The notes beneath the pieces were generated by a model that saw only the letters and a list, made by a program, of their open reading frames with translations, did not search any database and was not told the origin of the DNA. From Escherichia coli (GTDB lineage: Bacteria > Pseudomonadota > Gammaproteobacteria > Enterobacterales > Enterobacteriaceae), in assembly GCF_024223415.1 (NCBI RefSeq), contig NZ_CP100500.1: a stretch of 64,000 nucleotides of DNA; one strand, 5' to 3'. Numbering within the stretch: position 1 is the first letter of the stretch; every line of letters starts with the position of its first letter. Position numbers and translations under genes: made by a program. Positions 31,083 through 44,331 of this stretch are shown in pieces.

Positions 31083-31143
31083 TAACAGACAATAAACAGG
31101 CCGTGATGTGTCGCGGTCTGTTTATCGAATTAAATGCAGATAT

Positions 31144-31176
31144 AAAAAAACCAACCTTTACGGTTGGTTTTTTTTG
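31144..31176. terminator. Terminator hairpin after yejO
   Basis: aaaaaaaccaacctttacggttggtttttttt. Confidence 0.6.
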
Positions 31177-31183
31177 GGATTTT

Positions 31184-31196
31184 TGGTCCACGAGAG
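31184..31196. other. Putative distal att site (degenerate repeat of tRNA-Pro 3' end)
   Basis: tggtccacgagag versus tRNA 3' end tggtcggcacgagagg; imperfect, so the exact boundary is uncertain. Confidence 0.35.
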
Positions 31197-31257
31197 TAGT
31201 TTAATTGAGTGTGTAACCACATGATTTTAAATAATATGCTTGATTCAACTTTTAAAT

Positions 31258-31284
31258 CGTATAACCAAACGTATAACTAAAATC
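31258..31284. promoter_or_regulatory. Putative integrase arm-type repeats (left island end)
   Basis: cgtataaccaaacgtataactaaaatc; same motif recurs at 42233-42290 next to int. Confidence 0.4.
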
Positions 31285-31447
31285 ATTTGCTGAAAAAGTG
31301 TACAATTTAAAGGCGAGTTTTCCCAGAGGTTTATTAAACTACGAAAATTTCGTAGTTTGTGAATATATTCCGGCCTGCTGGTTAACAGTCCTCAGATGTG
31401 AGGGATGTAGCCAGCGCAATTTTGCGCTTTGCTTTAATCTCAGTCAG

Positions 31448-31729
31448 TTATCGCCGTAACCGCTCCGGCTTCTTCCAGTGGTACGTAATTTTTTCTTTCT
31501 CCCGATACAGTTCAACGCGGCGATTGTAGGCCAGCATTTCCAGAACGCGGATCCGTATGTCGCGCATATCCACGCCGTTAAGCTCAATACCGTCACGGCG
31601 CATCACCTCAGCAACCACACGCGCATAATTTTCGGCGGTCACGCTGTCCGGCTGCGTGGCCTGTTCGTCAGCCTGCTGGCTGATTCCGGCAACGCGACGG
31701 ATTAATCGCAGTAGTTCGGCTTCTGTCAT
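31448..31729 (-). CDS. Hypothetical protein, cos-adjacent
   Basis: 93-aa ORF, plausible composition; no family recognised. Confidence 0.45.
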   Translation of the reverse strand: MTEAELLRLIRRVAGISQQADEQATQPDSVTAENYARVVAEVMRRDGIELNGVDMRDIRIRVLEMLAYNRRVELYREKEKITYHWKKPERLRR

Positions 31730-31761
31730 TGTGCCCCCATCGTTCTGATAGTCTGGTGTCG

Positions 31762-31836
31762 TCGGGTCCTTCCTGGAATTATGGCCCGTTACGGGGCGTC
31801 GACCTCGCGGTTTTTCGCTATTTATGAGATTTTTTG
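31762..31836 (+). other. Lambda-like cos site, copy 1 (cosQ-cosN-cosB start, + orientation)
   Basis: cgggtccttcctgg...cccgttacg|GGGCGTCGACCT|cgcggtttttcgctatttatgag resembles lambda ACGGGTCCTTTCCGG...GGTTACG|GGGCGGCGACCT|CGCGGGTTTTCGCTATTTATGAAAA (lambda sequence from memory). Confidence 0.6.
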
Positions 31837-32285
31837 AGGGGGTGGTTGTTGTTTAATTGTTTGGTATATCTAATTGATAAGTAAGGTAAAAATAAAATAA
31901 ATACAACAACCTTACGGTGTATTTTGATGTCATTAATGTGAAAAAATTCAATGATATCAAATGGTTTTGTAAAAACATATGGTTGTTGTATCGCGTATTT
32001 GATGGCGTAACAGAAAGTGATTTTTAACTTTACCGCTCTGTAACTACGGATTATTCCATGCTGGCACGGAGAACGGCTACGGCATGACGCCACCCAGCCT
32101 ATACAGAACAGTAAAGCCGATAAATTGTTAATCACGCGCAGCAATGCGTGTGATTTTTGCACACTTCCGGTTAACGGGTACGATGTCCGGTTTGTTTGTA
32201 CATTTTTTGCACATGTCCGGTTCGCAGAAAGCATGTTTTTATATTTTTCATATAGTTAACTTGCAGAGAAACCGGACATGGATCC

Positions 32286-32360
32286 CGAAAAATTTTCATA
32301 AATAGTGAAAACGCGCGAGGTCGACGCCCCGTAACGGGTCCACATGCCGGAAAGGACCCG
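32286..32360 (-). other. Lambda-like cos site, copy 2 (inverted; reads cosQ-cosN-cosB on the minus strand)
   Basis: Minus strand reads cgggtcctttccggcatgtggacccgttacg|GGGCGTCGACCT|cgcgcgttttcactatttatgaaaattttt; closer to lambda than copy 1. Confidence 0.65.
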
Positions 32361-32384
32361 CAAAAAAAGCCGGATTTCTCCGGC
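32361..32384 (-). terminator. Terminator after the capsid-module operon
   Basis: Minus strand gccggagaaatccggc followed by a T-run. Confidence 0.5.
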
Positions 32385-32390
32385 CTTGTC

Positions 32391-32804
32391 TCAGATGGTT
32401 TTCAGTATGCGATCGATGTTGCCGTCATCGACCGGGTTTCTGCCATCGTATGCCATGCCAGCTGATACGGCTTTCGGGCTGTGCATGTCCATAAAGTTTT
32501 CAAAGGCTGAAGTAAGCTGTGGTGCAACCTTCGGGCGTTCCTGCTCTATGGTCATGCTAAGGATGCTTTTAGCCGTACCAACATCGATACAAGGCACGTT
32601 AGCCATTGCACGTAACAGCGGCTGGTAGTCGTCAGATTCATGAAGCGCCATAATCGCATCAGCGCGCTGCTTGTCCTGTTCTTCCAGTTTGTTTAGTCGG
32701 TGTATGGCCTCGTAGGTTGATAAACCTCTGTCAGCCATTGCCCGCGCTTCGGCTTTAAATTTACTCGCCAGCGGTAGCGTCATGATACTTTCATTCGTTG
32801 CCAT
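32391..32804 (-). CDS. Hypothetical protein, last gene of the capsid-module operon
   Basis: 137-aa ORF immediately downstream of the gpD-like gene; no family recognised. Confidence 0.55.
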   Translation of the reverse strand: MATNESIMTLPLASKFKAEARAMADRGLSTYEAIHRLNKLEEQDKQRADAIMALHESDDYQPLLRAMANVPCIDVGTAKSILSMTIEQERPKVAPQLTSAFENFMDMHSPKAVSAGMAYDGRNPVDDGNIDRILKTI

Positions 32805-32816
32805 CGTTCCCCCTGC

Positions 32817-33152
32817 TTATCGGGCCAGCGGCTGAACGGATACGCCGGAACCCGCAAAGGCGGCGCATTTTTTCGCATCGGTGTCGACGCTGTCAGGCCA
32901 GTTAACGGCGGCAATATTGAATATCCCCGTTTTGTAACACTGTGCTGATTTCTGCTTTGACGTGTCCACGGGGTGCGAAGTCAGATAAACAGCTTTGCCA
33001 GATTCCTGACCATCCCACGCCTTAAACTCGCCATTGTCTGCCAGCATCAGCGGGGTAAATTCCTGAATAACGCCAGCATCAGCGGCAAAATGTACCAGCG
33101 TCGTGGATACCTGCTGGCTGCCTGCAAATAACTCAATATATGGAGCGTCCAT
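32817..33152 (-). CDS. Head decoration protein, lambda gpD-like
   Basis: 111 aa; conserved blocks shared with lambda gpD as recalled (TPLMLxD...AWDG...YKxGxF...WP...KKxAFAG). Confidence 0.65.
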   Translation of the reverse strand: MDAPYIELFAGSQQVSTTLVHFAADAGVIQEFTPLMLADNGEFKAWDGQESGKAVYLTSHPVDTSKQKSAQCYKTGIFNIAAVNWPDSVDTDAKKCAAFAGSGVSVQPLAR

Positions 33153-33163
33153 AGAATCCCCCG

Positions 33164-34219
33164 TTAAGCAATTTTGACGGTAACAAATTTGCGAATATCT
33201 GCCGGTACCGGCTGCGGTGCGCTGTGCGTCTGCACGTACTCAATCGCCGGATCGCCGTCCTCAATCCAGTTTTTCGGGTAGTACATGTTTTGCGTTGCGC
33301 CCGTTCTTACCGCTTCCTGATCCATAATCGCACCATATGCCACAAGCCCTTTATTGTTGGTGTTACCCAGGACAAGCAAATCAGGCTCAAGGAAATATTT
33401 TTCGGTGCCGTCGCTGTCAGTGTATTTGCCGGAATAGACGATAAGGGCCAGATCACCAAGATAGCCTTTAAAGCTCACCACTTCGCCCAGGTTTTTACAG
33501 GCCAGCTCGGCGGCGGATTCTGAGCCACGGTAAAGATCGTACAGTTCACGGAATTTTTTAAAGCTGCGTAATGTGCGCCATGCCTCACCGCCCATAATCA
33601 TGACGTTGGCGGGGCAACCTGCCTGATCAGCATAAAGCTCGATGTCATAGATTGGGTCGTGCATGTCTTTATCCTGCTGGGACCATTTTTTACCACTGGC
33701 CTGCTGTATGATGCAGTTTTCCGGTATTTTCCAGTCGATTTCATAGCGTTCTATGCCTTCGCCCTCAATGATGTTTTTTCCGGTCGTTACCGCATTCACC
33801 GCCAGCCATTCCACGCGCGCCTTAATGGCGTTTATCTGGCGGCGCATGTTGCCAGTAATCAGGCGCATACGGCGGTAAGTTGGATCGTTAAGCTGTGCCG
33901 GATCTTCTCCAGCCATGCGCATGATGGTCTTTGTTGGATCGATTTCGTGCTTTGGCTTCATGTAGCCTGGTTTAATCGTGCTGGTTTCGTACCCTTTATC
34001 GCGCTGGACCTGACTACCCACCATAGGAGAACAGAACGCTGACATCGTAACCTCTTCAATGTCCAGGGTGTCCAGCATGATGTTTTGGGTGTTGAAGGTC
34101 GCCACGTTCGGGAAAAACAGCGTGGTAAACAGCGGACTAAATTTAAATTCCGAAATATCCCCGCGATTCAGGTACGCGAAAAGCTGGTTAGTTGTAAGTG
34201 CCGTTGCTTTGCCTGTCAT
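33164..34219 (-). CDS. Major capsid protein, lambda gpE-like
   Basis: 351 aa; blocks shared with lambda gpE as recalled (FKFxPLF, PGYMKPKHE, DPxYRRMR, YSGxY, YPKNW, GDPA). Confidence 0.8.
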   Translation of the reverse strand: MTGKATALTTNQLFAYLNRGDISEFKFSPLFTTLFFPNVATFNTQNIMLDTLDIEEVTMSAFCSPMVGSQVQRDKGYETSTIKPGYMKPKHEIDPTKTIMRMAGEDPAQLNDPTYRRMRLITGNMRRQINAIKARVEWLAVNAVTTGKNIIEGEGIERYEIDWKIPENCIIQQASGKKWSQQDKDMHDPIYDIELYADQAGCPANVMIMGGEAWRTLRSFKKFRELYDLYRGSESAAELACKNLGEVVSFKGYLGDLALIVYSGKYTDSDGTEKYFLEPDLLVLGNTNNKGLVAYGAIMDQEAVRTGATQNMYYPKNWIEDGDPAIEYVQTHSAPQPVPADIRKFVTVKIA

Positions 34220-34425
34220 TATTCACCTCCGTGAACCTGATTGATACCCAGCGCCGCACGTAAATAGGTACGCACCTGCCAGCCTGTTGACGGCTCAACC
34301 ATCGCCAGCGGATCAAGTCCTGCCGCAATGCCTGCTTTTACATTCTGCTGGTGGCGTTCCTTGAGCGCCTCCACGATGTCGGGGCTTATGTAGACCGTCA
34401 CCCCGCCTTTTTTCTCTTCTGCCAT
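34219..34425 (-). CDS. Hypothetical small protein, first gene of the capsid-module operon
   Basis: 68-aa ORF whose stop overlaps the gpE-like start. Confidence 0.45.
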   Translation of the reverse strand: MAEEKKGGVTVYISPDIVEALKERHQQNVKAGIAAGLDPLAMVEPSTGWQVRTYLRAALGINQVHGGE

Positions 34426-34592
34426 AGTCAGAAATTCCTCTTTGACTTAAAAAATCATAACTGGATGTTCATCCAGTCCTGATTATAATCATGATTGCAT
34501 TTTGCGCAACAATATTGAGTTACGTTGCAAATTATGAAATGATTATCCCGATCATGTGTGCCAGTGCACCATAAAAAACCTCGTATACAAAA

Positions 34593-34660
34593 GCCCGATA
34601 AGCCCCCTGTGACCTTATCGGGCTTTTTTTAGGCGTAAAAAAGCCGGATTGCTCCGGCTT
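34593..34660. terminator. Pair of terminator hairpins between the finO-like gene and the capsid operon
   Basis: gcccgataagccccctgtgaccttatcgggc + T-run, and agccggattgctccggct preceded by an A-run. Confidence 0.5.
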
Positions 34661-34683
34661 CGTCTCTTCATGTGGTCAGGGTT

Positions 34684-35268
34684 TTATGCTTTCCGTACGC
34701 CCGAGGAACTGGCATTTTTCAGAATAATATTATGCCCTGCTGGTGGCTTACCGTTATGCTTATTTTCTGCCTTCATGTTTCTGCGCTCCTGCTGTTTTTT
34801 CTTCATCTCATCCAGTCGCTTCCCCGCGTTCAACTGGTGCTCCTGTGTCACCTCCCCGCACGGATGGCCTTTCAGGTCGTAACGCACGCCACCAGCCATC
34901 AGGGAACGGTAATATCGCACTGAACTGACATAATACGCCAGCGTTGCGCGAAGCGCTCCCTGACCTAATGAAATACCTCTCGCAGTAATATCCTCCATCA
35001 GGTCATCAAATATGCCAACCTTAAGCGGTCTGGGCGATTCCTGGCTGAAAAGTTCAGGCCAGAGCGCGGCAAGGCGTTCAACGCGTCTGATATTTTTTTT
35101 CCGGCTCTTTTCTGATTTGCGTTTTGCTGCCGTCTTCTGTTGTGTTTTCTGCTCGCGGCTCTGCTTTTGCGCTGGTGTGGTTTTATCCGGCTGTTCAGCC
35201 TCCTGCGTCTTTTTCTGCGGTGTGCCGTATATGCCTTTTGGTTTTCGGTTAATGGTCAGCTTTGTCAT
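34684..35268 (-). CDS. FinO/ProQ-domain RNA-binding protein with a basic N-terminal extension
   Basis: Likely start MTKLTINRKPK (SD ggggagaa upstream); C-terminal region shares blocks with the ProQ N-terminal FinO domain as recalled (LWPELF, RPLKVGIFDDL, DLxGxPCGE). Confidence 0.65.
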   Translation of the reverse strand: MTKLTINRKPKGIYGTPQKKTQEAEQPDKTTPAQKQSREQKTQQKTAAKRKSEKSRKKNIRRVERLAALWPELFSQESPRPLKVGIFDDLMEDITARGISLGQGALRATLAYYVSSVRYYRSLMAGGVRYDLKGHPCGEVTQEHQLNAGKRLDEMKKKQQERRNMKAENKHNGKPPAGHNIILKNASSSGVRKA

Positions 35269-35347
35269 GTTCTCCCCCTTTGTGCTGTTCCACCAGCGGC
35301 ATCTGCTACCCCGTGTCGCTCCCGCTGGTGTCGTGTTTCCCCGCCTG

Positions 35348-35668
35348 TTAATAACCGTCATCATTTACGTTATCAGGGTAATCACGCCATATTTCATCAG
35401 TAAGCGACGGTAGCCCCATCTGTTGTATTGTCCTGTCTGCGGCCCTTCTGACTGCGTGAACATCATAACGGTTTTCAGGTATCGGGCGCTTTGCCTTCCT
35501 GATACATTCCCTTGCTCTCATTGCCGCAAGTTCTCTGTGCCTGTCTTCCTGAAGAGTAATCATCACATCCTGCCACCTTCTGGCAGCCCGTCGCCACAGT
35601 CCCCTGCTCTCGAGTTCTTCTGCTGTCGCGTCGCTTATTGTCCGGTTCTTCGGTGTGCTGTTGTTCAT
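35348..35668 (-). CDS. PerC-family transcriptional activator-like protein
   Basis: 106 aa with AEELESRGLWRRAARRWQDVM, resembling the conserved PerC/Pch motif as recalled. Confidence 0.5.
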   Translation of the reverse strand: MNNSTPKNRTISDATAEELESRGLWRRAARRWQDVMITLQEDRHRELAAMRARECIRKAKRPIPENRYDVHAVRRAADRTIQQMGLPSLTDEIWRDYPDNVNDDGY

Positions 35669-35685
35669 GTTGCTCCCCGCCTGAT

Positions 35686-36096
35686 TCAGAAGGGTATATC
35701 ATCTCCGTAGGGGTCATCGCCTCCCGCTGGTGGCTCATTCCCCTGTGTGCCTGTGGTTTTGCGTCTGTTCCCGCCATGACGTGCCGCACGCGCACTGATT
35801 ACGCTGTCTGCGATAACCTGCCAGCCCTGCCGCGTTTCCCCGTTCTGTCCGGTCCACTGGCTCACCTGCATGTTACCCGCCACGCTCAGGAGTTCACCTT
35901 TGCGGTGCTTTGCCAGTGCTTCGGCCTGTCTGCCAAACGCCAGCACAGATAACCACATCGTCGCCGTTCCGTCATCTGCCTGGCTGCACGGAAGGGGGAC
36001 CGCCATACTCGCCATCGCCATTTGTGTCCCCTTGCTGGTGGTCTTTAACTGCGGGTCAGCCACCAGCCGCCCGTAAGCCGCTATCTGTGCTGTCAT
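35686..36096 (-). CDS. ssb: Single-stranded DNA-binding protein (phage-type SSB)
   Basis: 136 aa; OB-fold pattern (GRLVADPQLK...WLSVLAFGRQAE...) and acidic C-terminal tail GDDIPF typical of SSB. Confidence 0.7.
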   Translation of the reverse strand: MTAQIAAYGRLVADPQLKTTSKGTQMAMASMAVPLPCSQADDGTATMWLSVLAFGRQAEALAKHRKGELLSVAGNMQVSQWTGQNGETRQGWQVIADSVISARAARHGGNRRKTTGTQGNEPPAGGDDPYGDDIPF

Positions 36097-36344
36097 GCTG
36101 TATGCTCTCCGGTTTTAACGTTGATGGTTGTCACCTGTTCCGCTCCGGCAATCTCCCGTTCTGTCAGCGTGGCAAAATTTGCCGCTACCGTTGTCATGAA
36201 TGCGCTTATCAGTTCGGGATGTGCTTTCGCGTATCCTTCTCCCGCGTGGCGGTCTATCGTTCTGATTGCCACCTTTAAGGCGTGCTCTGTCATGTCTAAC
36301 GCTTTATATTTTGGCGCTGTCTTATCTCTGGTTTTTCTGTTCAT
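36093..36344 (-). CDS. Hypothetical protein
   Basis: ORF 36093-36374; likely start MNRKTRDK, just downstream of the iterons. Confidence 0.45.
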   Translation of the reverse strand: MNRKTRDKTAPKYKALDMTEHALKVAIRTIDRHAGEGYAKAHPELISAFMTTVAANFATLTEREIAGAEQVTTINVKTGEHTA

Positions 36345-36560
36345 TCCCCACCACTCCCCACTTTTGCTCCCCACTTTTTAAATTCCCCACTTGCTCCCCA
36401 CCTCGTTTTTTGAGTGAATCTAATGCTTTGTTTTTCATTGCGTTTTTTACTCCCCACTTTTTTGGATGTATACAGGTGGGAAAGTGGGGAATTATGTTTC
36501 AATTTTGTTAAATTCCCCACTCTCCCCACTTTTACTACCCACTTTTTACAGTGGGTAAAC
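36344..36560. repeat. Iteron cluster, putative island replication origin
   Basis: At least nine direct and inverted copies of (a/c)TCCCCAC(TTTT), e.g. actccccactttt, gctccccactttt, attccccacttg, plus inverted gtgggaaagtgggga, next to the primase/helicase gene. Confidence 0.6.
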
Positions 36561-37961
36561 ATCATCCCCATCGACACAAATCACGCCGTCTTTTTCCAGC
36601 TTGGACAGCCAGCGCCGGAAGTGCTTCATCTCATACCCCAGCTTTTTCATATCGTCGCGGAGAAGGGCGATAGTGCATGGCTCTTTGTGTGCCGTCCGCG
36701 TTCTGATGCACTGCCATAGCGCGGTATGGTTTTCCGTCTTGTTGCCTGCCTCCTCGATGCGCTCCAGTTCAACGGGAGAGCGCGGCTTATCAACCACCAC
36801 CAGCGACGTGATTAACTCCCCGTCAGCGTCGGTAAAAAGCTCCACCACGCGTAAATCGTAGGCGGCCTCTTTCAGTTCCTCCGCGTCCTTCATTTTGGTG
36901 CAGGATATAACCAGGGCTTTACTGTCTGCACCTTCTCGGCGAATACGGTATTCAGCGTCCAGAGATGCACGAAATGCACTGGAACCACGCGCCCCCTTTG
37001 TTTCATCCTTGCCGGAATGGTGGACCACCAGCACCGTGGCCCCTGTGCGTCGTTTCAGGTCGTCACATCCACGGATAAACGCCCCCATATCCCGCGCGTC
37101 ATTTTCATCATTACCGCCAAAGCAACGCGCCAGCGTATCCAGAATAATCATGCGTACCGGTTTACCCGTTTCCCGTTCAACCTGGCGGGAAGCGATAACC
37201 ATTTCATCAACATCAAGCGGGGCTGCCGGAAAAATCGGGCGGTTTACCAGGTACAGATTTTTCACCCGTTCATCATTAACGATTTCCCATGCCTTGATAC
37301 GACGGGGGACACCAATGCCACCTTCACCGACAACATACATCACCGAACCATGCGCCACCCTGCGGCCTCCCCAGTGGCGCCCCGTGGCAACATGACACGC
37401 CCAGGAACACGCAAGGAATGATTTATAGGAACCGCTCGCACCGTATGTGCTGCACAATGAATTAGCCGGAATCACGCCCTTAACGACATAATCAAGCTGT
37501 GTGTCGTATCCTGCAGATCCAATGCTCATGGGTAGCGTGGTTTTTCGCTGGCTGTATTGCTCATCAGTAAGTATTTCCCCGCGCTCTGCCTGTTCGCGGA
37601 TCCGTTGCAGGTAGTCGCGCCATTCCTCCCGCTTCTGGCTGTGCATTCCCTCGGGGTAATAACTCGCATCCCGTATACCTGCCGCCGCCAGTTTTTGCCC
37701 GATGGCATTAATATTTGATGGCTTGATGTGGCCTGCCTTGTACAGCCGGACACAATAGCGACCATCGTCGATAATTTTCAGGTCTGCCAGTTCGTCAAGC
37801 TGACTGTCTCCCAGCCATACTGGCGGGACGTTATCGCCAGCAAGTCGCCCGTCCTGTTCCTGCCATTGTTTTGCGTGCGCCCAGGCATCACTACCTGCAA
37901 AAATAATGACTTCGGTCATTTTGTTGTGTGGCTGTTTTTTTAAGTTCGGTGCCAGTTTCAT
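36546..37961 (-). CDS. Replication protein: putative primase/helicase (RecA-like NTPase, AAA_25/RepA-like)
   Basis: 471 aa; P-loop-like GASGSYKSF and Walker B-like MIILDTLARCF; position typical of satellite pri-rep genes. Confidence 0.55.
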   Translation of the reverse strand: MKLAPNLKKQPHNKMTEVIIFAGSDAWAHAKQWQEQDGRLAGDNVPPVWLGDSQLDELADLKIIDDGRYCVRLYKAGHIKPSNINAIGQKLAAAGIRDASYYPEGMHSQKREEWRDYLQRIREQAERGEILTDEQYSQRKTTLPMSIGSAGYDTQLDYVVKGVIPANSLCSTYGASGSYKSFLACSWACHVATGRHWGGRRVAHGSVMYVVGEGGIGVPRRIKAWEIVNDERVKNLYLVNRPIFPAAPLDVDEMVIASRQVERETGKPVRMIILDTLARCFGGNDENDARDMGAFIRGCDDLKRRTGATVLVVHHSGKDETKGARGSSAFRASLDAEYRIRREGADSKALVISCTKMKDAEELKEAAYDLRVVELFTDADGELITSLVVVDKPRSPVELERIEEAGNKTENHTALWQCIRTRTAHKEPCTIALLRDDMKKLGYEMKHFRRWLSKLEKDGVICVDGDDVYPL

Positions 37962-38257
37962 TTTTTATCCCTGAATCCGTTAATCATGGTTTTCATCTTC
38001 TGAATATTGGCGCGTGCTTTCTCCCTGCTGGTTGGTTTACTGCGGGGCGCTGCCTGTACCAGAGAAAAATCACGCCGGAACTGATAAACAGGCATCACGC
38101 AGTCATATTCGTAGCCATCACGGCGGTAAGTGATGCGCCGTTCTGCCACGCCTTTAATCGTTACCGTACCGCCGTAGTTATCACGGAAAATATCGCCGGG
38201 ACGGATTTCAGGCCGAGCGGGGCCGCTGGCAGTAAAGCCAGAATTTTTCTTTTTCAT
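37958..38257 (-). CDS. Hypothetical protein
   Basis: 99-aa ORF overlapping the primase start (ATGA). Confidence 0.45.
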   Translation of the reverse strand: MKKKNSGFTASGPARPEIRPGDIFRDNYGGTVTIKGVAERRITYRRDGYEYDCVMPVYQFRRDFSLVQAAPRSKPTSREKARANIQKMKTMINGFRDKK

Positions 38258-38261
38258 GGTT

Positions 38262-38462
38262 TTATTTTCCTGTCAGTGATTCCGGCTTTATTCCGGCGCG
38301 AATACAGGCTTCAGAAAAAAAAGCCAGAGAACCAATAACCTCATTATTTCTAAGGCGGCATTGCGATTTCACTTTCCCTTTATCCAGGAATATCAAAACG
38401 CGCCCCGTATAATCAGATGGCACATTAAGCACTACAGGTAAGTGCGCTTCATGATTATTCAT
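38262..38462 (-). CDS. Hypothetical small protein
   Basis: ORF 38262-38531; likely start MNNHEAH (66 aa). Confidence 0.35.
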   Translation of the reverse strand: MNNHEAHLPVVLNVPSDYTGRVLIFLDKGKVKSQCRLRNNEVIGSLAFFSEACIRAGIKPESLTGK

Positions 38463-38742
38463 GGCTAACCACCTCCTGGAATTTTCTTCTGTAACGCGCC
38501 TCTGCCACATATTCAGCATAGTCCGACGCAATATTGAGAATATCGCTACCCGTTCCTGAATGTTCGGCGGTTTCCAGTAAAAAACATGCAGCTTTTACCA
38601 TGTCAGCAACACATAACAGCGCAATATCTGTATCTTCCGGTGTGCCATCAAATTCCTGTTTCAGGGCATTAAAACGATCATCACGCATAACCCCATATTC
38701 ACAATCAGCAATCAGGATGGCTTTGGCCTCATTCAGTGCCAT
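38455..38742 (-). CDS. Hypothetical protein (C-terminal, protein-like part of a 595-aa stop-free frame; true start uncertain, could extend to about 38898)
   Basis: Last ~95 codons of frame 38455-40242 are acidic and helix-like; upstream part looks non-protein-like. Confidence 0.4.
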   Translation of the reverse strand: MALNEAKAILIADCEYGVMRDDRFNALKQEFDGTPEDTDIALLCVADMVKAACFLLETAEHSGTGSDILNIASDYAEYVAEARYRRKFQEVVSHE

Positions 38743-38896
38743 ATCAGCGGTAAGCTGTGCGTAGGCCAGCAAATGCGGGATTATTGCCCCTGTATATTCC
38801 GGCTCTCTGATAATGTGGTCGGATGTGTTGATTAAATAGTTTGTGCGAAAAATGCACCTGTAACCATCAGTTAACAACGGATATACAGGGGGGACC

Positions 38897-39067
38897 ATGA
38901 ATGATAAGGGGGTGCCGTTTGATGTGCTCCTGCAAAAGCTGAATGCTGCACGCGCCGCAAGGGAACGTGAGCGCATGAGTAATAACCCTGTCCCTCCTGA
39001 ATTACCTCGCCCTGAACATTTTCCGCTTGAGGATTTCATCAGGGGACGAATCCGAACAAAACGATAA
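38897..39067 (+). CDS. Small ORF a (56 aa); paralogous to ORF c
   Basis: MNDKGVPFDVLLQKLNAARAARERERMSNNPVPPELPRPEHFPLEDFIRGRIRTKR; G-rich SD-like sequence upstream; shares the FPLE-FI / RERER motif with ORF c. Confidence 0.3.
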   Translation: MNDKGVPFDVLLQKLNAARAARERERMSNNPVPPELPRPEHFPLEDFIRGRIRTKR

Positions 39068-39310
39068 CCGCCGCCGTGATATGAGGCATCACGACGCAAT
39101 GCATTACAGGTGAGCACCATGAACAAATCCATATTATCCCCCACAGTTCTGGACGTAAACACAAAGCAGCGACAGATATTATTACGCGCCGTCATTAAAG
39201 CCAGACACGAGAAATTAAACCAAATCTTAAAATAAGATACGCCGCTACCGCTGTAAGTCTTCATCAGAAACAGAAAACGCCAGAGCAGATGAGCACGGAG
39301 GTAACTCTTT

Positions 39311-39505
39311 ATGAAAATAAACGAATCAGGGGAAATTACCGAAGCCAGCGTGGTACGCCAGCGGAGGCGGGAACGACGGGTACGGCCCCCCGCGCCATCC
39401 GATAATTTCCCGCTTGAGCGCTTCATCAGTGAACGGCCCCGCATACGCTGGAACGGCACAACCCCATACCCCGAGGAGAGACAGACAAAAAACAAACAGC
39501 GATGA
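39311..39505 (+). CDS. Small ORF c (64 aa); paralogous to ORF a
   Basis: SD ggagg 8 nt upstream; contains RRRERRVRPPAPSDNFPLERFISERP. Confidence 0.3.
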   Translation: MKINESGEITEASVVRQRRRERRVRPPAPSDNFPLERFISERPRIRWNGTTPYPEERQTKNKQR

Positions 39506-39681
39506 TGAAATCTGGAGGCCAATACCATCACGCAGCCATCAGGAGATTGCTGACGCGCTTCCTGTTCGCTGGTGGCCTCGATGGTAATCACGCGCGGTTG
39601 TGCAGTGCTCAGGGCGATAAAACGCCACACAAAGGCCGTTTGTGTGTGCGCAAGGCGTGGGGTATGCTGTGTTCCAGCCAT
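39460..39681 (-). CDS. Icd-like (host cell division inhibitor-like) protein; 3' end undefined because the frame has no stop until 38455
   Basis: Strong SD (aggag, 9-nt spacer) before ATG at 39681; MAGTQHTPRLAHTQTAFVWRFIALS...TSEQEARQQ... resembles Icd-like proteins of satellite elements as recalled. Confidence 0.35.
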
Positions 39682-39808
39682 AATCGTTACTCCTGTTAAC
39701 GGTTTGGTTAGACGCCCTGCATGTGTGCCACCACTGCGGGGCGTTGTTTTTGTGGTGTCATTGGTATACATTGTCACCTTAATGGCATTATCACTACAGA
39801 GGTTTATC

Positions 39809-39985
39809 ATGTCAACCAATGACAACAAAAAAGAAAGATTTTCCGTACAACTACGCCTAGACGCAGATTTGTTCGAGCGTTTAAGTATTGCCATGAAAGA
39901 AGATGGCGACGATAACCGATCTGGATGGATCAAAAGGCTTTTACGACGCGAATTAGATAAACGCGGCATTGAGTCAAAAAGCTGA
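39809..39985 (+). CDS. Ribbon-helix-helix (Arc/Mnt-like) DNA-binding protein
   Basis: 58 aa; ERFSVQLRLDADLFERLSIAMKEDGDDNRSGWIKRLLRRE parallels the Arc repressor pattern (beta-strand then two helices) as recalled. Confidence 0.5.
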   Translation: MSTNDNKKERFSVQLRLDADLFERLSIAMKEDGDDNRSGWIKRLLRRELDKRGIESKS

Positions 39986-40078
39986 CAGCCAACCAGCAAG
40001 CCAGCACACTGATCACATTGCCCACCAGCCGCAAATGTGGCATTGTTGGTGATGCTTTTGTTTTCCCTTGTTCCCACT

Positions 40079-40108
40079 GGCGACCCTTTTGCGGTCGCCT
40101 TTGTTTTG
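40079..40108 (+). terminator. Rho-independent terminator after the RHH gene
   Basis: ggcgacccttttgcggtcgcc + tttgtttt. Confidence 0.55.
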
Positions 40109-40202
40109 CCTGTTATCCGGCAATTGTGGCGCTTCGCCACACGGTTTATATAACCCCACTGCTCAGATTCATTTTTTGCGCAGTAGGTTAATTGTTCGCA
40201 AG

Positions 40203-40231
40203 GGCGGCTCCTTATCGGGGCCGCTTTTTTC
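40203..40231 (+). terminator. Second plus-strand terminator before alpA
   Basis: gcggctccttatcggggccgc + tttttt. Confidence 0.5.
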
Positions 40232-40256
40232 GTGTTTGTCATATCTGTGATACCCG

Positions 40257-40463
40257 TTAAGCAGCCGTTCCGCGTGCTTCCTGTTCGCGTTCTTTCTGCC
40301 AGGCCAACACATCATCCTCATACCATCCGCGACGGCGTAAACCAACGCGAAAACCCTGCGGAAATTCTCCGGCGTTGATCATGCTTTGCAGCGTGCTGTC
40401 TGCCTTGATGTGGATAATTTTTTTTACTTCCTGGCGAAAGATAATTTTTCTGATTGCTTCCAT
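40257..40463 (-). CDS. alpA: AlpA-family regulator / excisionase-like protein
   Basis: 68 aa; HTH region LQSMINAGEFPQGFRVGLRRRGWYEDDVLAW typical of AlpA-family proteins. Confidence 0.7.
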   Translation of the reverse strand: MEAIRKIIFRQEVKKIIHIKADSTLQSMINAGEFPQGFRVGLRRRGWYEDDVLAWQKEREQEARGTAA

Positions 40464-40593
40464 CGTGATTTACCTTGTGAATCCGGTGTATTCCGGTGAC
40501 AAATACGGTAAATCATCGGATATGGGTAAAAACAGTTCCCACCGTTTTTAAACGGTATACACCGTTTTTTATATTGATGATTTGAAATGGAAT

Positions 40594-40622
40594 TATAAAA
40601 AAAGCGGCATTTCTGCCGCTTC
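40594..40622 (-). terminator. Terminator between the int-proximal ORF and alpA
   Basis: Minus strand agcggcagaaatgccgct followed by a T-run. Confidence 0.45.
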
Positions 40623-40630
40623 CAGGATTG

Positions 40631-40882
40631 TTACCGCCATTTTTTGGGCCTGCCTCCGATCTTCATAGATGCCGGACGTACGACCTTATCAATACTTACC
40701 GCCAGATTTCTGGAAGCGCCACGGGATACCAGAAAATCTACTACCTGTTTTTTTGATGGGGCCGTCGTCCTGTCCTCCGGATCGTAGGTTGACCAAAATT
40801 CATGCTGAACCATCAGGGCCAGTTGCAGCCCGTCGCAATTGCATCTGATATTTTTTTGCATCTTAACGGTTTCATGTTTCAC
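40631..40882 (-). CDS. Hypothetical protein between int and alpA
   Basis: 83-aa ORF with basic C-terminus (GGRPKKWR). Confidence 0.4.
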   Translation of the reverse strand: MKHETVKMQKNIRCNCDGLQLALMVQHEFWSTYDPEDRTTAPSKKQVVDFLVSRGASRNLAVSIDKVVRPASMKIGGRPKKWR

Positions 40883-40959
40883 GGCCTTGTCGTTAAATTT
40901 GATGCAATTATACGACGGTTTTACATGGTTTTCGTAGTTTTTACTGGTTTTCTGTACAG

Positions 40960-42219
40960 CTACACGGCTCGGATACCCCTTTTACCACTGGCGAGGGTTA
41001 CGCCCGTCGCCGCAGCCTCGACAAATTCGCCCCACCAGCGCATCAGCACGATGCGTTTTTCTATGTAGTTGCTCCGGTTGTATGCCCGTCTAACTTCGTT
41101 GGTGTCGACGTGGGCAAGTGCCGCCTCTATTACGTCCGGCTCGAATCCTTCCTCGTTCGCTGCTGTGCTGAATATGGCGCGTAATCCATGAGACACCAGC
41201 ACGCCAGCGAATCCCATACGCCGCAATGCTGCGTTAGCTGTCTGGCTGTTCATCGGCTGCTGTGGGTCTTTCAGACTTGGGAAAACGTAATTGCGGTGGT
41301 GGCTGATTGGTTTCATGGCCTCCAGCACCGCCATAGCCTGACCGGAAAGCGGGATAACGTGATCCCTGCGCATCTTCATGCGTCCGGCAGGTATCGTCCA
41401 TTGCTTCGCGTCCAGGTTGATTTCATCCCACCGCGTTGATGACGCTTCGGCGGGACGGGTTACGGTCAGTAACTGCCATTCAATCAGTAATCTGGTCTGC
41501 CGTTCTGTTGCCGATACTGATAAAGCCTGCATAAGCTCGGGCAGCTGTTCGGGGCGGATTGTTGGCATATGTTTTTTTACAGGTGAGGGAAACGCCTTAC
41601 GCACATTCATAGCCGGATTGGCATCAATCAGCCCACTGTTGGCGGCGTAATCCATTACCTCATTAACGCGCTGTAAAACCCGCTTGAGTGTTTCCAGGTT
41701 GCCGCGCTCCTTGATGGGGGTAAGCACTTCAACGAACCTTCGGGCGGTGAGGGTATCTATTGGCGTGTTGCCGATGAACGGGAATACATATTTATCCAGC
41801 GAACGCCAGATGTCTTTAATCGTGTTGGGGGCCAGATTCTGGCTGATTTTCACCTGGTACCATGCCGCCGCCACATTTTCGAACGTGTTCCCTTGTCTTC
41901 GGGCCTCTGTCTCTCTTTTTTGCCTCTCGTGGTCCTGCGGGTCAGTTCCGGCACTGATTAACGTCCTGTACTCGCTACGGCGTTTTCTGGCATCAGCCAG
42001 GGAAACATCTTCAAGCGATCCAAAACTCAGCAATATTCTTTTTTTGTCCGATGGTCGGTAGTAGGAAAATCTCCAGAGTTTTGATCCAGACGGTTTGACC
42101 AGGAGAAAAAGCCCTCCGCCGTCCTGCAGGGTGTACTCCTTTTGCGCTGGTCTGGCTGCTTTGATCTGCACTGTGGTTAATGGGTGTGTTTTTCTCGCCA
42201 TATGTCTATGATTCCACAC
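40960..42219 (-). CDS. int: Tyrosine recombinase / integrase (P4-type)
   Basis: 419 aa adjacent to tRNA-Pro; N-terminal arm-binding region (LFLLVKPSGSKLWRFSYY) and C-terminal catalytic domain (HGLRAIFST...LAHV...RAYNRSNY). Confidence 0.9.
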   Translation of the reverse strand: MWNHRHMARKTHPLTTVQIKAARPAQKEYTLQDGGGLFLLVKPSGSKLWRFSYYRPSDKKRILLSFGSLEDVSLADARKRRSEYRTLISAGTDPQDHERQKRETEARRQGNTFENVAAAWYQVKISQNLAPNTIKDIWRSLDKYVFPFIGNTPIDTLTARRFVEVLTPIKERGNLETLKRVLQRVNEVMDYAANSGLIDANPAMNVRKAFPSPVKKHMPTIRPEQLPELMQALSVSATERQTRLLIEWQLLTVTRPAEASSTRWDEINLDAKQWTIPAGRMKMRRDHVIPLSGQAMAVLEAMKPISHHRNYVFPSLKDPQQPMNSQTANAALRRMGFAGVLVSHGLRAIFSTAANEEGFEPDVIEAALAHVDTNEVRRAYNRSNYIEKRIVLMRWWGEFVEAAATGVTLASGKRGIRAV

Positions 42220-42232
42220 GAAAAAACAGGGT

Positions 42233-42290
42233 TTTAGTTATACGGCTTTAGTTATACGTCAGCCCGTATAACTAAACGTATAACTAAAAA
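42233..42290. promoter_or_regulatory. Cluster of putative integrase arm-type sites
   Basis: ttagttatacg x2 (inverted) and cgtataactaaacgtataactaaaa between int and the tRNA. Confidence 0.4.
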
Positions 42291-42419
42291 ATCCGGCTGA
42301 TAGCTTATAAATCCGGTGATGTTCGGTGACTAAAAAACATAAAAAAACCCGCCAATCAAGTGATTAGCGGGTTATCCCTGTCTTATCCGGTGCTTTCCGG
42401 TGATATCCGGTGGGCGATT

Positions 42420-42496
42420 TGGTCGGCACGAGAGGATTTGAACCTCCGACCCCCGACACCCCATGACGGTGCGCTACCAGGCTGCGCTACGTGCCG
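42420..42496 (-). tRNA. proL: tRNA-Pro (proL-type)
   Basis: Reverse complement reads CGGCACGTAGCGCAGCCTGGTAGCGCACCGTCATGGGGTGTCGGGGGTCGGAGGTTCAAATCCTCTCGTGCCGACCA (77 nt, cloverleaf-compatible). Confidence 0.9.
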
Positions 42497-42570
42497 ACTC
42501 GTGGCTGTTAATACTACCGTTTTCCACACCGATTGCAAGTAAGATATTTCGCTAACTGATTTATAATTAA

Positions 42571-44331
42571 TCAGTTAGCGATAAAACGCTTCTCGTCTGT
42601 CAGTACTTGCAATAACAAACTTAACTGTGGTTTTTCATCTTTCACTCTTTCACCACGTAAGTTGTAAGTGCGGTATTTACCGTTATTGTTCAGCACCAGC
42701 GTCTTTTTCGGGGTGGTAATTGCCAGCGTATCGTTATCCGCTGCGGTAACCCAGTAATGACGGCGTTGAGGGTTGAACAAATCCTGACCTTGCGAATATT
42801 CGCTGGCAGGTGTGCTGACATGTAGCAGGCGTTGCATCAGCGTCGTCATCAGATCGGTATGATCAGTCAGCGCATTAATACGCTGCGCCGGCGTGCCTGG
42901 CCAGTGAATCACTAATGGCACCTGCAGGTGACCGTGGGACCAGTCAAAGGTTTCTTCCTCTTCGCTCAGTGGAATACCCCGACCGGCAGTGATAATCACC
43001 ACCGTATTGCCCAGTTTGCCAGAATCACGCAGTGCATTGAGCACGCGGTTGATCTGGTCATCGACATTGCCTGCCGCCCGGCTATATTTCCGTGCAAATG
43101 CCTGCTGATTGCTGTCGTCAATGTTGGTGCCATTGAAAGAGACCCACGAGAACCAGCGGTTATCTTCTTGTGCGTAGCGTCCCAGCCAGTTGATCCACTG
43201 CGTGGCGGTCTGCTCGTCGGATTGGGTGCGTACGCTCGGCATCGAGAAATCTGACAACAATGCCTGACGATAAAGCGGACTGGTAAAGCCATCTGACGAG
43301 AATAGGCCCAACTGATAGCCTTGCTGGTTGAGAGCGGTAATTAACGCCGCAGGCGTACGGGTCGACAGAATGCCGTCCATATAGCTCGGTGAGATGCCAT
43401 AGAACAGGCCAAAGATGCCGTTGTCTGTAGTGTTGCCGGAGCTCATATGGCGCGTGAACGAAATATTTTGCTCAGCAAAACCTGCCAGCGCAGGCATCTG
43501 CTTCTCGAAGCGTGAGTAGTTCAGGCCATCGACAGTAATCAACAAGACATTCTGCCCGGTGCCCATATCGCGATAGCGCAGTTCGCTTAACGGATACTGA
43601 ACGGAAACGGCGTCTGGATTACCTTGCTCAATAAGACGGCGTTGATACTCCTGTGCATCAAGCAGGCCATGCTTTTCAAGAAAACGTCGCGCCGTCATCG
43701 GGTACGAAAGCGGCAGGTTAGCGCGCTGCATGGTGATCGGGCGATAGAAGTTGGCATCGGCCCAGATATACACCACATGCGAGGCGATAAAGGCGATAAA
43801 TAAGAATGCGGCCAGCGGACGCGCGAAGCGCCGACGACGCGTCAGGCTGCGCAGCTTTTGCCAGCTCCACGTCGCAAACACCAGTTCAAGCAATAAAATA
43901 ACCGGCACGCTGATGAACATCAGCTGCCAGTCGCGCGCCATCTCATTTTCGTCTGGGTTGATAACCAGTTGCCAGACGATGGGATTAAGATGGAGATGGA
44001 AACGAGTAAAGACTTCGCTATCGATCAGTAATAGCGTCATTCCCGCCGTTGCCAGAATGACGGACAAAAACCTCATCAGCCTCTGGGAGCCGACGATAAA
44101 GGTCAGCGGGAAGAGGATCAGCAAGTAGGTGGCGAACACCAGGAAGCTGAAATGGCCGATAATGCTTACGTAGGAATAAATGCGACCAGCAAGCGTGGTC
44201 GGCCAGTCGGCGATAAACAGGTAACGGCTGCCAATGACGAGCGAAAGCAGAATATTGAACAGTGCAAACCAGTGCCCCCAACTGACCATCTGGGAGACTT
44301 TTTCACGGTAGCGCTGACGATGAGTTACCAT
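42571..44331 (-). CDS. yejM: Inner membrane protein YejM (LapC), sulfatase-like
   Basis: 586 aa, N-terminal TM helices and periplasmic sulfatase-like domain. Confidence 0.9.
   Translation of the reverse strand: MVTHRQRYREKVSQMVSWGHWFALFNILLSLVIGSRYLFIADWPTTLAGRIYSYVSIIGHFSFLVFATYLLILFPLTFIVGSQRLMRFLSVILATAGMTLLLIDSEVFTRFHLHLNPIVWQLVINPDENEMARDWQLMFISVPVILLLELVFATWSWQKLRSLTRRRRFARPLAAFLFIAFIASHVVYIWADANFYRPITMQRANLPLSYPMTARRFLEKHGLLDAQEYQRRLIEQGNPDAVSVQYPLSELRYRDMGTGQNVLLITVDGLNYSRFEKQMPALAGFAEQNISFTRHMSSGNTTDNGIFGLFYGISPSYMDGILSTRTPAALITALNQQGYQLGLFSSDGFTSPLYRQALLSDFSMPSVRTQSDEQTATQWINWLGRYAQEDNRWFSWVSFNGTNIDDSNQQAFARKYSRAAGNVDDQINRVLNALRDSGKLGNTVVIITAGRGIPLSEEEETFDWSHGHLQVPLVIHWPGTPAQRINALTDHTDLMTTLMQRLLHVSTPASEYSQGQDLFNPQRRHYWVTAADNDTLAITTPKKTLVLNNNGKYRTYNLRGERVKDEKPQLSLLLQVLTDEKRFIAN

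Follow-up and report, generated by a model that had tools for sequence, protein, structure and literature searches.

A candidate ribbon-helix-helix repressor and cis-antisense RNA at the early operon of an Escherichia coli phage-inducible chromosomal island

Described control systems and the island locus

The immI region of phage P22 combines two ribbon-helix-helix (RHH) repressors, Mnt and Arc, with the antisense RNA sar controlling ant (PMC2629481). For phage-inducible chromosomal islands (PICIs) of Gram-negative bacteria, the founding study found only an activator, AlpA, and left the matter of a global repressor open; none is established (PMC6092414). Here we report the computational analysis of a 64,000-nucleotide stretch of Escherichia coli DNA (contig NZ_CP100500.1, the whole of which is called the window below) that carries such an island, and concentrate on a 58-amino acid (aa) protein encoded divergently from the Icd-like/replication operon. 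In silico, the locus holds a gene with a predicted RHH fold, divergent promoters, an operator pair that co-varies with the protein, and an RNA with assignable structure, strand, and promoter. We put the probability at roughly 60% that this protein is a repressor which, together with a cis-antisense RNA, would exert a P22 immI-like dual control over the early/replication operon of an EcCICFT073-type PICI.

Among the systems compared, P22 immI appears closest in logic and layout. In both, an RHH gene diverges from an operon with an operator at overlapping promoters, and a small cis-antisense RNA lies over the ribosome-binding site of the operon; for the window, the latter is suggested by strand-specific covariation, an invariant -10 box, and a terminator. 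The two differ in that there is no significant homology to Mnt or Arc here (Pfam Arc, E about 0.04 at best), in that the genes presumably regulated in the window are Icd-like, DUF4222, and the RepA helicase of a satellite, whereas P22 regulates an antirepressor, and in that the RNA of the window would target the first gene and the entire leader. An ORF6N/Bro-like gene follows in a few relatives only.

The immunity systems of P1 and P7 (immI) and of P4, built around C4 or CI RNA with IsrK/seqA, icd, and ant, share another feature, an Icd-like open reading frame (ORF) that is first in an operon held off by an RNA of the 77-nt class, as far as the reference list of PMC8546580 and PMC3632133 indicate. 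The immunity region of P4 lies between alpA/vis and the replication genes, which is the position found in the window, and some Gram-negative PICIs carry C4/isrK RNAs at that position (PMC3632133; PMC10111431). Papers on this zone list only Bro-network proteins and C4/isrK RNAs (PMC10111431). In contrast to the RNA proposed here, which is encoded on the opposite strand, C4 and CI arise by processing of the sense leader, and the target sites on which they act are repeated; a putative protein repressor is additionally present in the window. The Rfam models for C4 (RF01695) and IsrK (RF01394), which stand for the immunity RNAs of P1, P7, P4, and N15, had no match at E ≤ 1 in 31000-42600.

In plasmid copy control (pMV158 CopG/RNAII; R1 CopB/CopA), replication genes are under an RHH-type repressor and a translation-blocking antisense RNA. 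The likeness would be one of dual negative control of replication genes; those repressors are co-transcribed with rep rather than divergent, and the element studied here is an integrated satellite. Stl and Rpr, the master repressors of Gram-positive PICIs (SaPIs), resemble the locus in the position and orientation of the regulator, which has the int side on one flank and, diverging from it, the replication operon on the other (PMC6092414). Stl regulators, however, are large helix-turn-helix proteins derepressed by helper proteins, with no similarity in sequence or size to a 58-aa RHH protein, and activation by AlpA has no SaPI counterpart. In a literature search that covered papers outside subscription-only journals, neither an RHH repressor nor a cis-antisense RNA was found described for Gram-negative PICIs. 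The type of switch is known; what appears new is its occurrence here, together with the families to which the protein and the RNA belong.

The RHH gene and its operator-like elements

The features of the divergent region that bear on the RHH gene are as follows.

39809-39985, plus strand: RHH-fold gene, 58 aa (MSTNDNKKERFSVQLRLDADLFERLSIAMKEDGDDNRSGWIKRLLRRELDKRGIESKS)
39797-39801, plus strand: Shine-Dalgarno sequence AGAGG of the RHH gene, 7 nt 5′ of the ATG, read from the sequence
39753-39777: operator-like element O1, string GGTGTCATTGGTATACATTGTCACC, with the conserved core CATTGGTATACATTG at 39759-39773; about +4 to +27 of the minus-strand promoter
39809-39832: operator-like element O2, an inverted copy of O1, including the palindrome TGTCAACCAATGACA (39810-39824); overlaps RHH codons 1-8 and the minus-strand -35 box
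39815-39787, minus strand: sigma-70 promoter of the Icd-like/replication operon, -35 box TTGACA at 39815-39810, 17-nt spacer, -10 box GATAAT at 39792-39787; predicted start at about 39780
39744-39772, plus strand: candidate RHH-gene promoter, -35-like TTGTTT at 39744-39749, -10-like TACATT at 39767-39772 inside O1; predicted start at about 39779

A preliminary description of this DNA, made from its sequence alone, had placed a 58-codon ORF at 39809-39985, separated by 127 bp (39682-39808) from an Icd-like start on the minus strand, and these coordinates proved exact. The ORF is conserved, is preceded by a Shine-Dalgarno sequence, diverges from the Icd/replication operon, and runs toward alpA (40257-40463, minus strand), with which it is convergent. 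It is a real gene under purifying selection: in 13 homologous loci from different genera, the ratio of nonsynonymous to synonymous polymorphism (pN/pS) in the plus-strand frame was 0.135, and variable columns were distributed 24/9/39 over the three codon positions, while the other five frames gave pN/pS values of 0.32 to 4.4.

In current annotations, this gene is hidden. In three genomes carrying the sequence at 100% identity, the RHH ORF is left unannotated; the Prokaryotic Genome Annotation Pipeline (PGAP) has, in its place, an "Icd-like protein" of 595 aa on the minus strand (38455-40242), which crosses the gene in antisense. The RHH gene of the O157:H7 allele is likewise unannotated in every sampled row of 337 genomes, its antisense stretch being called an Icd-like pseudogene, which looks like a self-propagating annotation error. 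Joined in the 595-aa ORF are the strand opposite the RHH gene, the genuine 5′ portion of the Icd-like gene, and, from a downstream gene, the 3′ half; an inserted segment happens to stay open in frame up to that 3′ half. The idea that the 595-aa protein is real and the plus-strand ORF only its shadow draws on the absence of a stop over 1,788 nt, on the RefSeq annotation, and on an antisense frame over the RHH gene that is open in most relatives. We give it almost no credence and rejected this ORF as a real protein: substitutions follow the plus frame, the long ORF occurs in only about nine genomes that share the rare insertion, Icd-like proteins elsewhere have 64 to 66 aa and begin at the equivalent of position 39681, and the minus-strand promoter would lie inside the supposed ORF.

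The 58-aa protein is predicted to adopt an RHH fold (β-strand, helix, helix) over about 45 residues. The preliminary description's RHH assignment stands as a predicted fold, but no curated family reaches its threshold: Pfam RHH_1 gave only E = 0.032 for the window protein, its NikR and YlcI_YnfO_N (NCBIfam) matches were under the cutoffs, and a search of PDB sequences returned only NikR, at E = 1. For 19 members of the family, the lowest Pfam E values were 0.008 for RHH_10, 0.017 for RHH_1, and 0.041 for Arc. One RHH allele had a weak match to a CopB-type RepA regulatory model (E = 0.007) and another to RepB-RCR_reg (E = 0.002), neither of them significant. A profile search of 1.84 billion representative proteins yielded 46 clusters at E ≤ 0.001, so the family is narrow; no annotated distant relative was among these clusters, and every named member was "hypothetical". 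Within the loci collected, the C-terminal helix (DGDxx..W[IM]KRxLRxEL) is conserved, while the approximately 15 residues after Met-Ser-Thr diverge.

In hhalign comparisons, the class found in the window and that of O157 came together with a probability of 98%, and the type-A family showed no relation to the protein of CFT073 (probability 0.7%). The protein of the window does not belong to YlcI/YnfO (NF041551; 17.2 bits versus a 30-bit cutoff). YlcI/YnfO was the top, though weak, NCBIfam family for classes B to D (18.7 to 21.6 bits) and second to NikR for class A. True YlcI/YnfO members do occupy the same slot in EcCICFT073 (59 aa, 67 bits) and in the copy of the window island in strain B771 (60 bits). 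No published function of YlcI/YnfO was found in the literature searched, which lay mostly outside subscription journals. Because unrelated groups sit in the same slot, the slot behaves like an exchangeable immunity cassette.

The repressor idea is accepted mainly because the part of the protein that would read DNA co-varies with repeated palindromes nearby. The comparison set comprised about 90 loci: 13 from species genomes, several E. coli islands, the Pasteurella capsid-forming-PICI-like record Pmp8, and 78 IMG/VR contigs. The same slot is occupied in Pasteurella Pmp8, O157:H7, and EcCICFT073; in the 78 IMG/VR loci, for which flanks of 2.5 kb were compared, 51 had alpA downstream on the opposite strand and 46 had an Icd-like gene upstream. 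Each RHH class has its own palindrome in at least two copies, one about 40 to 50 bp 5′ of the ATG and one abutting or overlapping it. The operator-like elements, listed by the N-terminal motif of the class, are as follows.

Class KERxxVQLRL: CAWTGKWRTACATTG
Class KRSPxYQMRL (O157 allele): ATGGTAATTACCAT, two copies
Class KTDQYQxRL: TGTAATTACA, two to three copies
Class RSPQFPMRL: GGTATATACC
Class KKASAPFQLRL: TTGTCATTCGAT...ATCAAATGACAA
Class KGNKQIALRV: CAAGTGTCATACACTTG and GGTGTCTGACAC

Loci L012 and L014 each have palindromes of their own. When the 12-mer abutting the ATG was scored against a second upstream copy, the mean match was 9.5/12 in its own locus versus 7.4/12 in loci of other classes, and the self score reached at least the 90th percentile of the other-class scores in 47 of 60 unique loci. 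The operator pattern thus varies with the N-terminal arm and β-strand of the protein, which we read as repressor/operator co-variation. Allele-specific palindromes in two copies are also indirect grounds for predicting that dimers bind repeated or palindromic operators through paired β-strands. In Tenebrionibacter and Kosakonia arachidis (L012 5801-6168, L014 5713-6165), two tandem RHH genes of different classes follow one copy of the sRNA described below, the upstream gene having its own palindromes.

The preliminary description had pointed to one partially palindromic element in promoter-like sequence. The string exists at 39753-39777; as a single palindrome, GGTGTCATTGGTATACATTGTCACC matches at only 8 of 12 arm positions, and 816 of 2,000 dinucleotide shuffles of the 127-nt region (41%) do equally well or better, so that it was rejected as a signal in its own right. 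What stands is its place as one half of the O1/O2 pair: the inverted 24-nt segments 39748-39771 and 39809-39832 are complementary at 20 of 24 positions (83%), which none of 500 shuffles matched. The core TGGTRTACATTG is conserved across genera, and GTACATT does not vary among 11 type-A loci of different genera.

As to the promoter-like sequence, the minus-strand promoter agrees with the consensus at 11 of 12 positions in a consensus scan. Its -35 box is the reverse complement of RHH codons 1-3 (ATGTCAA). TTGACA lies opposite these codons in 60 of 60 unique related regions. Because an [AG]TGTCA anchor served to pick these regions, TTGACA contributes independent evidence through its final A alone; 16 to 18 nt away, most of the regions have a -10-like hexamer. 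In all loci collected and in all classes, the RHH-like gene begins with ATGTCAAC (Met-Ser-Thr), and the retention of this start context despite a diverged N terminus fits a constraint at the DNA level from the -35 box. The promoter of the RHH gene itself is inferred to lie at 39744-39772, its -35-like hexamer overlapping the U-tract of the sRNA; a plus-strand TAnnnT -10-like hexamer was present at -46 to -42 in 43 of the 60 unique regions.

In the 64-kb window, the O1 core is unique and no further operator copies were found, including at the alpA and int promoters. This bears on the proposal that the RHH protein is a full Stl-like master repressor, derepressed by a helper-phage protein, with AlpA acting downstream. 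Such a role would be suggested by the resemblance to the divergent rpr/stl layout of Gram-positive PICIs and by the helper phage signal for alpA, which is not known (PMC6092414), and the allelic diversity looks like heteroimmunity. We consider it quite improbable, given the single operator site away from alpA and int, the induction of EcCICFT073 by overexpressed AlpA alone (PMC6092414), and the little surface that a 58-aa RHH protein offers to a dedicated anti-repressor. Other modes of regulation are, however, known for proteins of the Arc and Mnt type.

The region 3′ of the RHH gene contains the following elements.

40079-40099, plus strand: first good intrinsic terminator, stem of 7 pairs (6 G-C) followed by TTTGTTTT; begins 94 nt past the stop codon
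40200-40228, plus strand: strong terminator directly before the 3′ end of convergent alpA; the minus strand lacks a T-run

The statement that the gene ends at a clean terminator was therefore only roughly right, as both hairpins exist but the nearer one is set well back from the stop. The 270 nt from the RHH stop to the alpA stop (39986-40256) hold four plus-strand hairpins and short direct repeats (GCAAATGTGGC, GCAATTGTGGC), and no gene was found between 39985 and alpA. EcCICFT073, O157, and MDP9-27 have an extra small plus-strand gene of 57 to 67 aa in this slot (motif EHESERFAPCAF), which is deleted in the window with its 3′ flank (CCCACCAGCCGCAAATGTGGCATTGTTGG) still conserved.

An antitoxin of a type II toxin-antitoxin (TA) system, which the preliminary description had offered as the alternative, is a very improbable identity for the RHH protein. 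In the window, there is no co-transcribed downstream partner, terminators and convergent alpA following instead; a second gene is absent from most relatives (8/78) and from other genera, the neighbours vary, and the second gene has no PADLOC or NCBIfam match.

The candidate antisense RNA and the Icd-like gene

Most of the intergenic region, in which the preliminary description had seen only operator sequence, is taken up by a conserved element that it had overlooked, so that the putative repressing components number at least two.

39676 to about 39752, plus strand: candidate cis-antisense small RNA (sRNA) of about 77 nt, equal to 77 of the 127 bases of the intergenic region
39676-39709, plus strand: 5′ stem-loop of the sRNA, complement of the Icd start codon and Shine-Dalgarno sequence, with a single-stranded GGUUAGA next in order
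39711-39745, plus strand: terminator hairpin of the sRNA, followed by the U-tract
39663-39668, plus strand: -10 box TATGCT of the sRNA, inside Icd-like codons 5-7
39511-39681, minus strand: Icd-like gene, 5′ portion, first in the operon; start at 39681, Shine-Dalgarno sequence AGGAG at 39694-39690, normal C terminus and stop lost

All loci share, between the Icd-like start and O1, a small hairpin, GGTTAGA, and a longer hairpin followed by a T-run. RNAalifold analysis of 17 sequences gave three helices, and 11 of their 22 pairs show compensatory changes; 93.3% of cells were paired, versus 30 to 46% when the 3′ partners were slid, and the covariation score of 0.414 (0.193 for shuffles) was reached by none of 500 shuffles. 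The strand can be told from the wobble pairs, of which 65 cells read as G-U on the plus strand (A-C mismatches if the minus strand were the RNA) versus 4 for the reverse case, and from the folding energy of the window RNA, which is -34.4 kcal/mol (z = -4.4) on the plus strand and -23.9 kcal/mol (z = -2.5) for the complement. These counts and energies ruled out a C4-like structured leader on the minus strand.

A covariance model built from the 17 sequences found one match in the window (39673-39753, 82.8 bits). In the 78 IMG/VR loci, which were not used in building it, the model placed the sRNA on the RHH strand about 60 nt 5′ of the RHH ATG in about 76. Over 57 distinct sequences, in an alignment fitted to the model, the paired cells amount to 95.2%, and compensatory change is seen at 14 of 21 pairs. 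A TAnnnT hexamer lies ten to five bases 5′ of the model start, with an invariant A at the presumed transcription start (39676). Its T, A, and final T are the same in 17 of 17 sequences and in a set of 45 distinct ones (45 of 45), and the spacing to the RNA structure is fixed, despite widely differing encoded Icd residues and a 6-nt offset of the Icd start between two subfamilies. The simplest reading would be an sRNA of about 77 nt that has a promoter to itself, of the extended -10 type, ends at an intrinsic terminator, and is perfectly complementary to the operon leader, the Shine-Dalgarno sequence, and the start codon. Rfam 15, searched on both strands of 31000-42600 at E ≤ 1, returned a tRNA and two weak, chance-level matches, none of them covering 39676-39752 and none to C4 or IsrK.

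The Icd-like gene starts at 39681 as the preliminary description had it, and residues 17-58 match NCBIfam phage_ICD_like with 53 bits against a cutoff of 25. Intact Icd-like proteins (L019, O157, and CFT073) have 64 to 66 aa. In the window, a segment of about 0.7 kb (38818-39520), found in 9 of 5,426 E. coli genomes, has replaced the C terminus and stop; compared with the sister island of strain MDP9-27, it takes the place of the Icd-like 3′ end, a 77-aa gene, and half of a 154-aa gene. Within the segment, a repeat can be read on the plus strand as the small ORFs 38897-39067 and 39311-39505, which share the motif FPLExFI..R.R; neither had a family match.

The sRNA could itself be the immunity factor, in the style of a type I TA system or of P22 sar, silencing a toxic Icd-like division inhibitor, with the RHH protein a mere autoregulator or insulator. 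The distribution of the module would agree with this: by blastn, the sRNA and the Icd 5′ block occur in about 1,029 of 5,426 complete E. coli genomes (about one in five), compared with 22 for the RHH allele of the window, and homology breaks off just past the U-tract of the terminator. In Kosakonia, Erwinia, and Leminorella (L003, L004, L005, L013, and L014), moreover, blocks of RHH gene, sRNA, small Icd-like gene, and a gene of about 105 aa stand with no recognisable int, alpA, or replication genes within 6 kb. They look like island remnants keeping the control module only, and such retention would fit an addiction-like role in which the sRNA checks a toxic Icd-like gene. We nevertheless think a mere accessory role of the RHH protein unlikely, because an RHH-like gene with operators of its own comes after each of the sRNA copies examined, because the sRNA lies about 60 nt 5′ of the RHH gene in about 76 of the 78 independent loci, and because O2 lies on the -35 box and spacer of the operon and not on the RHH promoter alone. 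Homologous copies of the sRNA are carried by O157:H7 strains EDL933/Sakai and by CFT073 (L020 17845-17925 and L021 855-773). Additional or displaced copies matching the sRNA model were seen in IMG/VR loci L068 (1623-1704), L070 (1729-1810), and L091 (3578-3657) and suggest tandem satellites or duplicated control modules.

The proposed switch in its island setting

For the preferred reading, in which RHH protein and sRNA act together, we infer DNA binding, repression, autoregulation, sRNA action, and induction by read-through as follows. RHH dimers would bind the two inverted operator copies, O2 covering the operon -35 box and spacer as well as the RHH start codon, and O1 lying just past the operon start and over the likely RHH -10 box. 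Binding would block initiation and early elongation and thereby keep the Icd-like/replication operon off, and through O1 the protein would regulate its own gene. The predicted start sites of the divergent promoters are no more than a base or two apart, and the promoters would be mutually exclusive. Operon transcripts that escape repression would meet the constitutive 77-nt sRNA, which might block their translation or destabilise them. The operon promoter is intrinsically strong, and a quiescent island should therefore need a repressor.

The island would be induced when transcription driven by AlpA proceeds leftward out of alpA, crosses the RHH gene in antisense, and enters the operon; it would thereby lower RHH expression by collision and titrate the sRNA. 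Such read-through appears possible because the hairpin at the alpA end terminates the plus strand only and a terminator scan found no strong minus-strand terminator between alpA and the Icd-like operon. P4 offers a parallel, its immunity region being transcribed through from a late promoter upstream (PMC10111431). AlpA expression depends on the helper phage, and its overexpression alone triggers excision and replication of EcCICFT073 (PMC6092414).

Several points weigh against this reading. The induction by AlpA alone means that a repressor is not strictly needed to explain induction. The RHH protein has no match above threshold in Pfam, NCBIfam, PHROGs, PADLOC, or PDB sequences, only sub-threshold matches of RHH type. 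Many single type-A O1/O2 pairs match at only 10 of 12 positions, which is common in shuffles, and the RHH promoter is weak by consensus and was unlisted by the consensus scan. The Icd-like C terminus has been lost to the rare insertion, and the control module here may govern a partly decayed operon. Binding, repression, and expression of both the RHH protein and the sRNA are deduced from sequence.

The island, as the preliminary description had recognised from its PICI-like context, is a Gram-negative PICI of about 11 kb. It lies in the chromosome between yejO and tRNA-Pro(ggg)/yejM and has the gene order of EcCICFT073, the prototype Gram-negative PICI. An O157:H7 island between phoQ and roxA shows the same order. 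Like EcCICFT073, it combines int and alpA, a replication module, and capsid and decoration genes (c1499 and c1500 in EcCICFT073; PMC6092414); its own attachment site is at tRNA-Pro.

40960-42219, minus strand: integrase, at the right end of the island; a small hypothetical gene comes next
40257-40463, minus strand: alpA, of the known PICI activator family, from the PGAP annotation of an identical locus
Left of the Icd-like ORF: genes for DUF4222, a RepA-family helicase, SSB, PerC, and a ProQ/FinO-family protein
Left part of the island: genes for a lambda-E-like major capsid protein and a head-decoration protein

The ProQ/FinO-family protein (34684-35268, minus strand; PGAP annotation of the identical locus) has no annotated equivalent in the O157 or CFT073 islands. 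On plasmids, proteins of the FinO type act as chaperones for the pairing of antisense RNAs, so this one could assist the antisense sRNA of the island itself. At the left island edge, Rfam gave a weak match to the OrzO-P RNA antitoxin (31102-31174, plus strand; 27.9 bits versus a gathering threshold of 60, E = 0.48), which is probably driven by the terminator hairpin there.

More broadly, and tentatively, we consider it possible that Gram-negative PICIs, both those of the classical EcCI type and at least some capsid-forming ones, own an immunity module made of mostly unannotated, heteroimmune RHH alleles with matching operators and a new cis-antisense sRNA family over the Icd-like leader, whose switch is flipped by AlpA read-through or by a helper factor that acts on the RHH protein. 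The RHH gene and the sRNA constitute a specific candidate for an off-switch that annotation has hidden, and the analysis supplies putative operators for several specificity classes, a near-consensus target promoter, a candidate RNA repressor without an Rfam family, and a natural set of allele swaps. If the proposed control is true, it would explain the silence of the satellite, its override by AlpA, and the mosaic region between alpA and the replication genes, and allele identity would decide which islands coexist or cross-repress.

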